48,151 bases of DNA, from positions 1 through 48,151 of the IMG/VR virus record IMGVR_UViG_2617270976_000012, one strand, 5' to 3'. The translations under genes and the position numbers were made by a program. Shown piece after piece: positions 16,638-17,895 of this stretch (its first letter is position 1; every line of letters starts with the position of its first letter). The notes below the pieces were generated by a model. It had not been told where the DNA came from and made no database searches. It saw nothing but the letters and a program-made list of their open reading frames with translations. Source of the stretch: a virus. Its lineage: Duplodnaviria; Heunggongvirae; Uroviricota; Caudoviricetes.

Positions 16638-16807
16638 GACTTATTTTTCCCGGCTCGCTTTTGCGGGCCTTTTTTGTATCCGCGCCACGCCCGGCGCATA
16701 TCAACCACAGAGCCTTTCGGGGGTGAGCTTACGGAGTGGTCAGTGTGACTTTCTCTGTGGGCAGATCGCTCCCGGGCGTTGGCTCACCCACCCAAAGGAA
16801 CGTCACG

Positions 16808-17239
16808 ATGTTTGGTATTTTTGGTAAAAAAGCCCGCCGAGCGGCAGTGGAAATTAAAAAGTTTGAGAAACGTGATCTGGCACAGGCGGTTATTAATGCT
16901 GCCTATCTGGTGGCCTATGCAGATGGTGAATGTGAGGCTTCAGAGAAAGCGAAGATCGAGCAGGTCTTGCGTAACCAGCCTGCGTTGTCCGCGTTTACGT
17001 CAGAAATTAATGCGATTAGCGCAACCATTATCGGTCAGCTGGATACGAACTTTAAAATTGGTCGTCGAGCGGCGTTACGTGAGATCGAGGATGTGAAACA
17101 CGATACGCGTGAAGCGGAAGACGTGCTGGATGTGGCGGTGGCCATTGCCGAAGCAGACGGCGAAATAGAGCCGGAAGAGCGCAAGGTGCTGGAAGAGATT
17201 GCCGGTGTTCTGGGCCTTCGTCTGGAGAATCATCTGTGA
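16808..17239 (+). CDS. TerB-like (tellurite-resistance TerB fold) protein
   Basis: 143 aa from MFGIFGKKARRAAVEIKK...; acidic helical protein with TerB-like pattern; family call by recall only. Confidence 0.45.
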   Translation: MFGIFGKKARRAAVEIKKFEKRDLAQAVINAAYLVAYADGECEASEKAKIEQVLRNQPALSAFTSEINAISATIIGQLDTNFKIGRRAALREIEDVKHDTREAEDVLDVAVAIAEADGEIEPEERKVLEEIAGVLGLRLENHL

Positions 17240-17247
17240 CGGTAAAA

Positions 17248-17409
17248 ATGCGTCTGGCTGTGGTTGCGCTCCTGCTGTTTCTGGTAGTGATGGTGGTGAT
17301 GGTGGACTTCAGCAGCCGGATAATGTCAGTGCTGGCTGACGGTGTGCTGGTGGCGGGTGTGGTGGTTGTTGCTTTCCCGTTGCTGAAAAAGAAAGCATCA
17401 GGCGATTAG
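17248..17409 (+). CDS. Small hydrophobic membrane peptide
   Basis: 53 aa MRLAVVALLLFLVVMVVMV...VLVAGVVVVAFPLLKKKASGD, two predicted TM segments; weak RBS. Confidence 0.3.
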   Translation: MRLAVVALLLFLVVMVVMVDFSSRIMSVLADGVLVAGVVVVAFPLLKKKASGD

Positions 17410-17653
17410 CAGGGTATCAGTTACCCGTTGAAATTTTTAAATACCTCACAATTCAGGCGGTTGACTGTTGTCTGGTTTGCGGGGAGTTTGTTAAAAGAAA
17501 CTGGCATGGTGAATCCCCCTGTGCGGAGGGGCAATCAGCAACTGGTGTTTTGTCACCGACCCTTATCCTTTCTGTGCGGGTTCAGGTGCTGATACTGAAC
17601 TCACCGGGAGGCACCCGGCACCATGCAAAATTGTCTACACTACCACTGTAAAA

Positions 17654-17678
17654 AGCCCCTCTCCGGAGGGGCTTTTCT
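17654..17678 (+). terminator. Rho-independent terminator (first of a cluster of hairpins through 17805)
   Basis: AGCCCCTC-TCCG-GAGGGGCT followed by TTTCT; adjacent hairpins at 17683-17713 (minus-oriented) and 17773-17803. Confidence 0.45.
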
Positions 17679-17895
17679 ATGGGCAAAAAAAAGCCCGCAG
17701 TGAGTGGCGGGCGGGTCGCATGAATATACATCAGGTATTTTTATTATCGTGTTCTGATTTTTACCATCTGTGATAAGGCTGCGCAACTGCGCGGCCTTTT
17801 TCGTTTTGCGGGCTGCGGTTCTCCTCTTTTGATTCTCCGTGTAGCCGGACCGTGGCCCGCAACTGTTGAGGAAAATCCCGGAAAGGGGAGGAATA

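Follow-up and report, generated by a model that had tools for sequence, protein, structure and literature searches.

A tciA-tciB cassette in the stx cargo slot of a lambdoid phage late operon, with a conserved, putatively SD-sequestering leader

Background

Stx2 phages (Stx2a_WGPS6, 933W type) carry in their late region the tRNA genes ileZ-argN-argO, a post-tRNA terminator, a cargo, the small RNA gene STnc100 (= EcOnc27), nanS-p and the holin gene, the cargo being the toxin (1.3 kb) (PMC12711010; PMC12370729). The small RNA has been reported just downstream of stx2B and as bound by Hfq (PMC12711010, PMC12370729), and expressed, Hfq-bound copies are reported for O157 strains (PMC5331693, PMC12711010). 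The locus described here lies in a 48,151-nt stretch of a Caudoviricetes virus (IMG/VR record IMGVR_UViG_2617270976_000012; below, the window) and shows the same slot with a different cargo, tciA-tciB, in place of the toxin genes.

This gene pair is already known. It was named in phage P1, is annotated at the same site in Escherichia phage JLK-2012, and is annotated in RefSeq genomes too, so the cargo is an ordinary one, a widespread phage gene pair. In P1, as here, a TerB-family gene (41% amino acid identity) is directly followed by the gene of a DUF3927 two-TM peptide; tRNA genes are adjacent, an STnc100-like RNA core is nearby, and the genes are non-essential accessory genes. P1 differs in having a third small ORF, tciC, in lacking the pseudoknot leader described below, in carrying the STnc100-like core upstream of tciA, and in that its tci genes lie in the C1-repressed ban operon (PMC4319500; PMC3728262), not in a Q-dependent late operon. 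JLK-2012, an stx-negative lambdoid phage of O55:H7 DEC5E, is much closer: its order is Q - tRNAs - tciA - tciB - yjhS/nanS-p - lysis genes, its DNA is 95.8% and its TciA 99.3% identical to ours, and the leader is the same. It has another Q gene and tRNAs for Asn, Thr and Gly, and its homology stops at window position 17626, so that the 3' linker and the terminator of STnc100 differ.

The TerB of the Klebsiella ter operon (terZABCDE, PDB 2JXU) shares with TciA its Pfam family, homology over about 123 residues and two acidic ADG..E-type motifs. An association of TerB with membrane partners has been reported. TciA differs in standing alone with a small membrane peptide: near the locus we found none of terZ, terA, terC, terD or terE, the neighbours being tRNAs, tciB, STnc100 and nanS-p. 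As to the leader, the closest described systems are the SD-sequestering pseudoknot riboregulators of the SAM-II and preQ1-II type and the translational activation stem of Mu com-mom. The likeness lies in a predicted H-type pseudoknot, an SD within a conserved helix and conserved unpaired junctions. Unlike all of these, the tciA leader is without sequence or covariance-model similarity to any Rfam family, and it has so far been seen solely in leaders of phage accessory genes.

The cargo slot and its occupants

An earlier note on this DNA had placed a TerB-like ORF, a two-TM peptide ORF and three hairpins between the tRNAs and the NanS-p-like gene, in a position equivalent to that of stx. All of these elements are present there (Table 1), and the position is borne out by comparison with the stx flanks of Stx2a phage WGPS6. 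On the left the tRNAs, which are the ileZ-argN-argO set of Stx2 phages, and the post-tRNA terminator are common to both phages; on the right common sequence returns 36 nt past the tciB stop and is followed by nanS-p and the lysis genes. Between the post-tRNA terminator and the upstream region of STnc100, the tciA-tciB cassette thus stands in the place of stxAB, and stxAB and tciAB are alternative occupants of one slot. This clarifies the anatomy of the medically most important lambdoid cargo slot: its left edge is the post-tRNA terminator, kept in Stx2 phages (alignment A1), and its right edge is marked by STnc100, the stretch just upstream of that gene being the edge of the exchanged cassette (Stx phage megablast matches at query ~807-1059). 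Stx2 phages retain a remnant of hairpin H0 only, the pseudoknot leader being absent, and no Stx phage is among the phage records named by a tblastn search with TciA.

Table 1. Features of the tciAB locus and its surroundings (window positions)
Feature	Position	Strand	Evidence
Q gene, late antiterminator, 273 aa	14267..15088	+	Pfam Antiterm PF03589, E 5e-51; PHROG anti-termination protein Q-like
tR'-like intrinsic terminator 3' of Q	15171..15192	+	CCCGCC/GGCGGG hairpin then T6; -12.6 kcal/mol; tR' assignment by position only
tRNA cluster	16388..16637	+	ARAGORN, Rfam tRNA, alignment with Stx2a_WGPS6
tRNA Met/Ile2(cat)	16388-16463	+	ARAGORN
tRNA Arg(tcg)	16470-16546	+	ARAGORN
tRNA Arg(tct)	16561-16637	+	ARAGORN
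Post-tRNA intrinsic-terminator-like hairpin + T6	16652..16675	+	-14.0 kcal/mol; 0/200 shuffles as good
tciA 5' leader, structured, conserved	about 16679-16807	+	sequence conservation, covariation, covariance model
Leader hairpin H0	16682-16686 with 16693-16697	+	leader alignment
Leader pseudoknot helix A	16705-16712 with 16753-16760	+	covariation
Leader anti-SD/P1 helix	16713-16728 with 16782-16798	+	covers SD AAAGGA at 16794-16799
Leader hairpin C	16738-16741 with 16747-16750	+	96% of cells paired
tciA, predicted 143-aa TerB-family protein	ATG 16808..17239	+	Pfam TerB, PHROG 632, PDB 2JXU
tciB, DUF3927 two-TM peptide, 57 aa from GTG 17236 (53 aa from ATG 17248)	17236..17409	+	Pfam DUF3927, E 7e-20; PHROG 1470 TciB-like
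Return of Stx2-phage homology, TCACAATTCAGG..TTGAC; upstream region of STnc100	17446..17474	+	alignment A1
STnc100 (= EcOnc27) sRNA gene	17475..17684	+	Rfam RF02076, 145.6 bits vs gathering score 47, E 2e-32
STnc100 core closing helix	17504-17511 with 17619-17626	+	Rfam model/sequence
STnc100 variable single-stranded linker	17627-17654	+	sequence
Hairpin 1, predicted Rho-independent terminator of STnc100, U-tract	17651-17676	+	-20.1 kcal/mol
Hairpin 2, leftward intrinsic-terminator-like	17685..17712 (stem 17693-17712; T8 on minus strand = A8 at 17685-17692)	-	-12.5 kcal/mol
Hairpin 3, strong intrinsic-terminator-like, 10 bp, T-rich tail	17775..17808 (stem 17775-17798)	+	-19.2 kcal/mol, z -4.3
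Long hairpin, nanS-p leader	17808..17860 (GCGGGCUGCGGU 17808-17819 with ACCGUGGCCCGC 17849-17860)	+	read from sequence
NanS-p-like esterase gene, right neighbour	ATG 17896..19839	+	Pfam DUF1737, SASA, DUF6645

Every gene from Q through the lysis genes is on the plus strand; the Q gene is the start of the late operon that holds the locus. As in a moron, the cassette has a terminator of its own (that of STnc100, on the 3' side) and sits between conserved neighbours, its slot edges being shared with Stx2 phages; the atypical composition of a moron is not seen, the GC content (0.51-0.53) being like that of the flanks. Terminator-like sites are frequent in this 7-kb region, 20 against 7.6 ± 2.6 in shuffles, and a T-run stands at the position of the post-tRNA terminator in 189/207 pattern matches taken as leaders (about 25 of these matches are coding false positives).

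Of 5426 complete E. coli genomes, 790 contain 80% or more of the cassette, which is very common in E. coli prophages and occurs in up to 8 places per genome. It is experimentally accessible in hundreds of E. coli lysogens, O157:H7 included. Farther away, adjacency or overlap of tciA and tciB is retained in P1, N4-like SP-076, jumbo phage ChrisDB and CharmingMan (TciA identity 37-70%). Most lambdoid loci, P1 and jumbo phages have tRNAs beside tciA; a strict tRNA linkage can be dismissed, since AF, SP-076, CharmingMan and some half of a mixed sample lack them. In our opinion the locus is best explained as an accessory cassette, tciA-tciB, that occupies the stx slot in the late operon of a lambdoid prophage and is followed by an STnc100 gene, and we consider this reading as a whole to be probable.

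The TciA and TciB proteins

The claim that the first ORF is TerB-like stands. Its product matches Pfam TerB (PF05099) over residues 26-138 with 59.8 bits (cut-off 24.4; E 3.9e-16) and PHROG 632 with 3e-69. Profile comparison of the 143-aa protein with the TerB structure 2JXU, the check that had been proposed, gives E 3.4e-14 over residues 15-137, and the single sequence still gives E 6e-8. As far as sequence profiles can tell, TciA is a TerB-family protein. The acidic ADG-x5-E type motifs are paired in it (YADGECEASE and EADGEIEPEE), and D39, G40, E46 and E124 are invariant across our TciA alignment. The protein is predicted to be cytoplasmic, with no hydrophobic segment; single-sequence AlphaFold2 proposes six helices, but at low confidence (pLDDT 57, pTM 0.29). 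The ORF had been drawn from 16736, where there is an in-frame GTG. We judge this codon to be non-coding because related loci interrupt the N-terminal extension that it would create (167 aa in all): in three of them a TAA stands in frame five codons ahead of the ATG, and a further group differs by a 1-nt indel.

TciB, the start of which overlaps the stop of tciA, is a two-TM peptide of the DUF3927 family. Its two hydrophobic segments and its DUF3927 match agree with the double-TM peptide first proposed; the length of 53 aa does not hold so well, since TciB most likely starts at GTG 17236 and has 57 aa. This GTG overlaps the tciA stop by 4 nt (GTGA) and has GGAG 8 nt on its 5' side. Starting there makes K4 invariant among TciB homologues, in an alignment that includes the proteins of P1, N4-like and jumbo phages and CharmingMan, and the PHROG profile is offset. 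The order seen here, with a DUF3927 gene immediately after a TerB-family gene and on its strand, is that of the P1 module; tciC has no counterpart in the window, there being no conserved ORF after 17409, and the next element is STnc100.

Expression and possible role of tciAB

The earlier note expected any cargo at this site to be highly induced through Q. Strong Q induction is an analogy with stx2, and it is consistent with what we see upstream of the cassette: a scan with the sigma-70 consensus finds no match from 16676 to 16808, and the cassette is immediately preceded by a terminator, with about 6 nt from the T-run of the latter to hairpin H0. Because no promoter was found and a terminator is directly upstream, we infer that tciAB expression probably requires late transcription antiterminated by Q, the leader gating translation and tciB being coupled translationally to tciA. 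Since the conserved leader is predicted to sequester the SD, the output of TciA protein need not follow the level of transcript.

The mechanism that we propose is as follows. The cassette would have no promoter of its own, and RNA polymerase modified by Q would come from pR' and pass both tR' and the post-tRNA terminator. In the absence of Q, transcripts entering the cassette would stop at the terminator of STnc100 (there is no other between it and tciB), and STnc100 would then effectively be the 3' end of the transcript. The leader would hold down translation of TciA or release it conditionally, coupling would yield TciB, and TciA would dock on the inner membrane via TciB, an interaction suggested by coupling and co-occurrence. 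TciA might then act in lytic growth, the membrane or its energetic state being kept stable until programmed lysis. We view this possibility, a TerB complex at the membrane with a function in lytic growth, with some doubt; it is drawn from knowledge of the family and from gene distribution. TciA homologues are present in strictly lytic phages (N4-like phages, Erwinia jumbo phages), which, like the C1-repressed operon of P1, points to a lytic-growth role. P1 does not need tciA, tciB or tciC to form plaques (PMC10695390), and any role must therefore be conditional; beyond that essentiality screen we found no experiments on tciA in the literature.

One may suppose instead that tciAB is a lysogenic-conversion pair with its own promoter, which protects the lysogen from tellurite, pore-forming colicins or superinfecting phage, like the ter operon of IncHI2. 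The name and the P1 annotation do come from ter-operon phenotypes (PMC4319500), terminators bracket the cassette as in a classic moron, and the abundance of the cassette in E. coli prophages would suit such a function. However, the space between the upstream terminator and the ATG holds no promoter match, the SD of tciA is sequestered according to our model, and strictly lytic phages too carry TciA homologues. TerB without terZACDE is not expected to confer tellurite resistance (PMC8421299, PMC3728262), no other ter gene is nearby, and a search of PADLOC anti-phage defence families gave no significant match. We therefore regard lysogenic conversion as unlikely and prefer expression in the Q-dependent late transcript.

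The tciA leader

Conservation is higher in the leader of tciA than in the coding sequence: among loci that share 88-97% identity in tciA and about 77% in tciB, the leader is 99-100% identical, and it precedes two TciA lineages of only about 41% mutual identity. In the fold of Table 1, 97.2% of alignment cells are paired, against at most 53% in slid controls. Compensatory change affects 6 pairs and 24 cells (3.6 ± 1.7 in shuffles), a level reached by 0/500 shuffles; at least three lineages (E. coli type, ChrisDB type, L139 type) show such change, and the elements concerned are H0, helix A and the anti-SD helix. The SD AAAGG pairs with an upstream CCUUU in 26-28 of the 28 leader sequences, the unpaired junctions of the pseudoknot are conserved, and covariance model R1 scores 153.5 bits on the leader, on the plus strand only. 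The model is thus one of a conserved pseudoknotted leader in which the tciA SD is paired with the upstream CCUUU. Two other folds were tried and rejected. An alternative helix B (GGAGUGGUC/GAUCGCUCC) has 78.9% of cells paired versus 96% for hairpin C, and the fully nested model of RNAalifold is disfavoured by the L139-type variant, whose sequence, as judged by eye, agrees with the SD/anti-SD pairing but not with the partner that the nested model assigns to that segment.

The leader is also found in Erwinia jumbo phages and before a gene for a periplasmic binding protein. There is also a second, divergent copy, which has the same topology but another helix A sequence (GAAAGU/ACUUUC); this paralogue sits before another late accessory gene.

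Conservation of the leader might have a reason other than RNA regulation, such as a role at the DNA level (a recombination boundary between phage modules) or descent from a decayed tRNA gene. The leader does sit at a module junction beside tRNA genes, the breakpoint of Stx2-phage homology is in or beside H0, and helix P1 is a stem of 7-8 bp enclosing about 69 nt. Against this stand the compensatory changes just described, the G-U pairs, because of which the fold is strand-specific, the second copy with its different helix A, and the fact that an SD and an ATG always stand at the end of the leader, even before a non-TerB gene. Neither ARAGORN nor the Rfam tRNA model calls it a tRNA. In our opinion such an explanation is quite improbable, and we prefer that of an RNA structure with a putative role in translation of tciA.

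Rfam 15 has no match for the leader at E<=10 (STnc370 at 29 bits and Leu_leader at 24 bits are sub-threshold chance matches to the leader and hairpins 2 and 3), and a described terB RNA motif was not found in the literature, so the leader appears to be previously undescribed. We tentatively propose, as a nearly balanced judgement, that these roughly 130 nt could represent an undescribed class of phage cis-regulatory RNA, in which an H-type pseudoknot locks the SD. Should the leader sense a ligand, an ion or a phage protein, this would make it a new riboswitch-like switch that times accessory-protein synthesis in a Q-dependent late transcript. An SD-sequestering leader offers a way to ask how phages control the dose of an accessory protein in a massively transcribed late operon, and also what TerB-type proteins do for them.

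STnc100 and the leader of nanS-p

The three hairpins had been taken for one bidirectional terminator cluster. All three exist, each being equalled or bettered by at most 2 of 200 shuffles, and hairpin 2 alone faces the opposite strand, as claimed; positions 17808-17860 add a fourth, longer hairpin. The single cluster does not survive. Hairpin 1 is, by its match to the family model, the terminator of the Hfq-type sRNA STnc100, and hairpin 3 and the long hairpin are parts of the leader of nanS-p.

The match to RF02076 is full length (model positions 1-206), and the z-score of the fold is -3.5. The conserved core hairpin of STnc100 is found no more than 1.5 kb downstream in 52 of 71 type-1 TciA loci. 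Since a partial copy (33.4 bits, below the gathering score) forms the 5' leader of tciA in P1, the structured core may have an ancestral link with tciAB, and STnc100 may have been left to Stx phages when tciAB gave way to stxAB. That the STnc100 of the window acts cis-like on the tciA leader, its linker GUCUACACUACCACU pairing with AGUGGUCAGUGUGAC in the hairpin C region, opening the pseudoknot and activating translation, is very improbable: the duplex (-21.3 kcal/mol) is marginal in the window, since 3.6% of shuffled linkers and 1.3% of other windows do as well (p 0.013-0.036), whereas most of the 26 distinct linker variants behind the cassette pair with their own leader no better than shuffles (p 0.2-0.9), and the linkers vary while the leader stays constant.

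Hairpin 2 is retained in locus L060 with a compensatory stem change; neither a leftward promoter nor a leftward gene was found for it. Hairpin 3 occurs at about 80% identity 5' of nanS-p in many loci. Other loci keep the 12-bp stem of the long hairpin with a different sequence, for example GGGCUGUAGUCC/GGACUACAGCCC. In a 99.9% identical genome, RefSeq names the NanS-p-like gene 'SASA family carbohydrate esterase'.

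Gene content of the stx slot

The stretch is the late region of an E. coli lambdoid prophage, with every gene from Q (14267-15088) to the lysis genes on the + strand. The earlier note had described a TerB-like ORF, a small membrane peptide and three hairpins between the tRNAs and the NanS-p-like gene, one hairpin being set for the opposite strand. This description is correct, since all of these features are found at their coordinates (see the table); the hairpin on the minus strand is hairpin 2, with its T8. The start at 16736 has to be given up, as it is an in-frame GTG in non-coding sequence; the ATG of tciA is at 16808.

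Features of the window and of related loci (window coordinates unless a locus is named)
Feature	Position	Strand	Basis or remark
sok RNA	12061-12236		RF01794, 112.4 bits
Hok-like ORF	12174-12386
tRNA-Met/Ile2(cat), Arg(tcg), Arg(tct)	16388-16637	+	ARAGORN
tciA ORF	ATG 16808, stop 17239	+	143 aa
tciB, small hydrophobic ORF	17236/17248-17409	+	alternative starts
STnc100 (RF02076)	17475-17684	+	Rfam, 145.6 bits against a gathering score of 47, full model
Hairpin 1, terminator-like	17651-17676	+	beats nearly all shuffles in folding
Hairpin 2, terminator-like	17693-17712	minus	T8; beats nearly all shuffles in folding
Hairpin 3, terminator-like	17775-17798	+	beats nearly all shuffles in folding
NanS-p-like esterase gene	starts 17896	+	right neighbour of the cassette
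Divergent second leader copy	L009 5473-5596; L124 3692-3815; L158 157-280	L158 minus	about 40 bits, R1

The 143-aa protein is indeed TerB-like: its full length aligns with PHROG 632 'tellurite resistance' (E 3e-69), it has a Pfam TerB match (E 3.9e-16), and its residues 15-137 match the solved Klebsiella TerB structure 2JXU (E 6e-8 as a single sequence, 3.4e-14 as a profile). The small peptide matches Pfam DUF3927 and PHROG 1470 'TciB-like', and because of these two sets of matches we call the pair tciA/tciB. TciA has no hydrophobic segment. TciB has the two hydrophobic spans expected of a double-TM peptide, flanked by basic residues, but the 53-aa length first given to it is probably too short: GTG 17236, which gives 57 aa, is the more likely start. 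This codon overlaps the tciA stop as GTGA, is preceded by GGAG and gives back the N-terminal M-x-x-K conserved in TciB homologues.

The locus as first described is already known and ordinary. In the stx-negative phage JLK-2012 tciA/tciB are annotated at the identical position, with 95.8% DNA identity to the window cassette; RefSeq labels the cassette 'tellurite resistance TerB family protein | DUF3927 family protein', and one RefSeq genome is 99.9% identical. At least 80% of leader and tciAB is present in 790 of 5426 complete E. coli genomes, O157:H7 strains with several copies each being among the carriers. The cargo itself is common and annotated; what we add is a corrected anatomy of the slot and a testable leader RNA.

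That the slot corresponds to the place of stxAB is borne out by a three-way alignment including the window and the Stx2a phage WGPS6, from which the boundaries were taken and in which both flanks are shared. The order in WGPS6 is Q, ileZ-argN-argO, stx2A, stx2B, gap, nanS-p homologue, holin. The two phages are near-identical across the tRNAs and the post-tRNA hairpin/T-run (16652-16675); similarity dwindles over 16680-16703 and returns at 17446 (TCACAATTCAGG...), 36 nt past the tciB stop and 40 nt past the stx2B stop. Therefore about 750 bp (leader and tciAB) stand in place of about 1.3 kb of stxAB. None of the records that tblastn with TciA named is an Stx phage, and the matches of Stx phages to the query are confined to the downstream block.

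The cassette belongs to the P1-type tciAB module, but is without tciC and lies in another operon. Likewise, its TciA belongs to the TerB family but stands outside any ter operon. Unlike a phage 'moron', the cassette has neither a detectable promoter nor an atypical composition.

The leader of tciA

When window segments were compared with 89 related loci, the 117 nt 5' of tciA proved 99-100% identical where tciA is 88-97% and tciB about 77% identical, and blastn still picks them up in ChrisDB and CharmingMan. About 90 distinct leaders were collected by scanning with a pattern and across species representatives. They stand before both TciA lineages (about 41% identical mutually) and turn up in Erwinia jumbo phages as well as in prophages of Pantoea, Pseudescherichia and Franconibacter. 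The gene for a 281-aa NMT1_3/TAXI-like periplasmic binding protein has a divergent form of the leader 5' of it. This variant (L139 1246-1380, ORF from 1378; also L143 and L107; about 100 bits) precedes a secreted solute-binding protein in place of TciA, followed by a gene for a 41-aa hydrophobic peptide.

Our model of the leader, tested on 28 distinct sequences, consists of a hairpin H0, a long anti-SD/P1 helix (CCUUUCGGGGGUGAGC with GCUCACCCACCCAAAGG), an internal hairpin C and a pseudoknot helix A (CCACAGAG with CUCUGUGG). In these sequences 97.2% of cells are paired, a value inflated by the derivation of the structure from the same sequences; with partners slid by 1-3 columns it is at most 53%. 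Stronger evidence for the fold comes from the compensatory changes found in separate lineages. Both sides have changed in 24 cells, against 3.6 +/- 1.7 in shuffles, 0 of 500 of which reach the observed value. In helix A the jumbo phages carry CCGUAGAG/CUCUACGG and the L139 group CCUCAGAG/CUCUGAGG; H0 offers GCACC/GGUGC and the anti-SD helix AACAGGG/CCCUGU. Within the anti-SD/P1 helix, a run of G in the 5' strand (16719-16723) differs in length, from 4-5 residues in most loci to 11 in L079; it could be slippage-prone and alter the helix, or the variation may be a sequencing artefact.

A covariance model of the nested part, R1, scores the window leader at 153.5 bits, on the + strand only. It also finds weaker second copies before another late gene in CharmingMan-like phages, with helix A as GAAAGU/ACUUUC and the topology unchanged. 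These copies comprise a terminator, a small hairpin, an SD-sequestering helix and a pseudoknot; the gene behind them is unrelated, is only a 'hypothetical protein' in L009 and lies 3' of the lysis genes.

The T-run of an upstream terminator directly precedes 189 of 207 pattern-matched leaders (about 25 of the 207 being coding false positives), and no promoter consensus fits the few nucleotides between it and H0. Rfam returned no family for the leader, even at E<=10 on the isolated 200 nt. Of the whole locus it is the leader that seems undescribed; it adds one more case to a type of element already known, the SD-sequestering pseudoknot.

STnc100 and the hairpins downstream

The three hairpins exist, but they do not form one terminator cluster, as had been thought. 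Hairpin 1 is the terminator of the sRNA STnc100, of whose family RF02076 the window copy is a full member. The closing helix of its core pairs GCAUGGUG (17504-17511) with CACCAUGC (17619-17626), and a CA-rich single-stranded linker (17627-17654) leads to the terminator. Given that no other terminator intervenes between tciB and this one, STnc100 would also be the 3' end of any non-antiterminated tciAB transcript.

STnc100 (also EcOnc27) has been placed just 3' of stx2B, 75 nt away in one paper and immediately downstream in the other (PMC12370729, PMC12711010). It is Hfq-bound, with about 11 copies in EDL933, and a Northern blot has confirmed one of them (PMC12711010, PMC5331693). The PasD sRNAs of EPEC are its relatives, and TerB genes are common neighbours of PasA/PasC (preprint 10.64898/2026.05.13.724894). 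In our sample the conserved core hairpin lies within 1.5 kb 3' of the cassette in 52 of 71 loci with window-type TciA. The linker (window 17627-17654 and equivalent positions) is hypervariable though the tciAB cassettes are near-identical: at least 20 distinct linkers follow the same cassette (26 counted, a few truncated at contig ends; window, L010-L226), which fits the seed diversification discussed for PasD/STnc100.

In P1 (L004) a partial STnc100-like core lies at 2348-2467, 33 nt 5' of tciA on the same strand (RF02076 positions 31-147, 33.4 bits, E 3.7e-5, below the gathering score). Because of this core, on the other side of the genes, the association of STnc100 with TerB reaches beyond lambdoid phages. 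From these two arrangements one may speculate that STnc100 has long been paired with tciAB and that, on displacement of tciAB by stxAB, the sRNA stayed behind in Stx phages. In L003 a RefSeq 'hypothetical protein' pseudogene on the minus strand (6855-6992, window about 17494-17631) lies wholly within STnc100 and is most likely an annotation artefact of an unannotated sRNA gene.

Hairpin 2 is a canonical terminator for leftward transcription only, preserved in one related locus through a compensatory stem change; neither a leftward promoter nor a leftward gene was found that could use it. Hairpin 3 is conserved 5' of nanS-p in many loci and is followed by a long hairpin of 12 bp (17808-17819 with 17849-17860), whose stem sequence varies among loci and prophages while pairing is preserved. 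Both are part of the nanS-p leader and not of the tciAB cassette, and nanS-p may be regulated at the RNA level too.

Proposed working and role

The stx slot in the late operon contains, in order, a terminator, the SD-sequestering pseudoknot leader, tciA, the overlapping tciB, and STnc100 with its terminator. Of this identity and architecture we are highly confident; in the expression logic our confidence is moderate, and in the physiological role it is low. By analogy with stx2 in Stx phages, where this is established, tciAB would be transcribed from pR' under Q antitermination. The leader would limit or condition translation of TciA, with TciB synthesis presumably following by coupling, and TciA might then act at the inner membrane via TciB. 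The adjacency of the two genes is held in P1, N4-like SP-076, the Erwinia jumbo phage ChrisDB and CharmingMan at 37-70% TciA identity, which argues that the proteins work together.

Since strictly lytic phages have homologues of TciA, and P1 has its homologue in the C1-repressed ban operon, we favour, tentatively, a role in lytic growth, e.g. stabilising the membrane or its potential until holin triggering; in our opinion it is rather unlikely that tciAB serves lysogenic conversion or exclusion. The P1 genes, whose TciA is 41% identical to that of the window, were named tciA/tciB by homology and are non-essential (PMC10695390). Authors of lytic-phage genomes call the gene unexplained (PMC4319500, PMC3728262, PMC8421299), and the literature searched reports no experimental function for tciA/tciB.

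Neighbouring genes

Often tciA lies inside or beside phage tRNA clusters (L004, L005, L209, L147, L178, L190, L115 and the window): tRNAs are on both sides in P1, tciA is inside the cluster in Erwinia jumbo phages, and lambdoid phages have it directly behind the cluster. In roughly half of a mixed sample tRNAs are missing from the vicinity of tciA; the link is frequent, not obligatory.

Two extra genes between Q/tR' and the tRNAs are absent from Stx2a_WGPS6. The first (15315-15512), a TrmB-like winged-helix ORF of 65 aa, has two terminator-like hairpins behind it. The second (15646-16359), of low GC (0.42-0.45) and with a promoter-like site at 15583-15610, encodes a 237-aa AraC-family regulator, which may resemble AraC-like regulators from EHEC prophages, PatE/Psr for example. 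In the nin region (12061-12386) there is a toxin-antitoxin locus of the hok/sok type.
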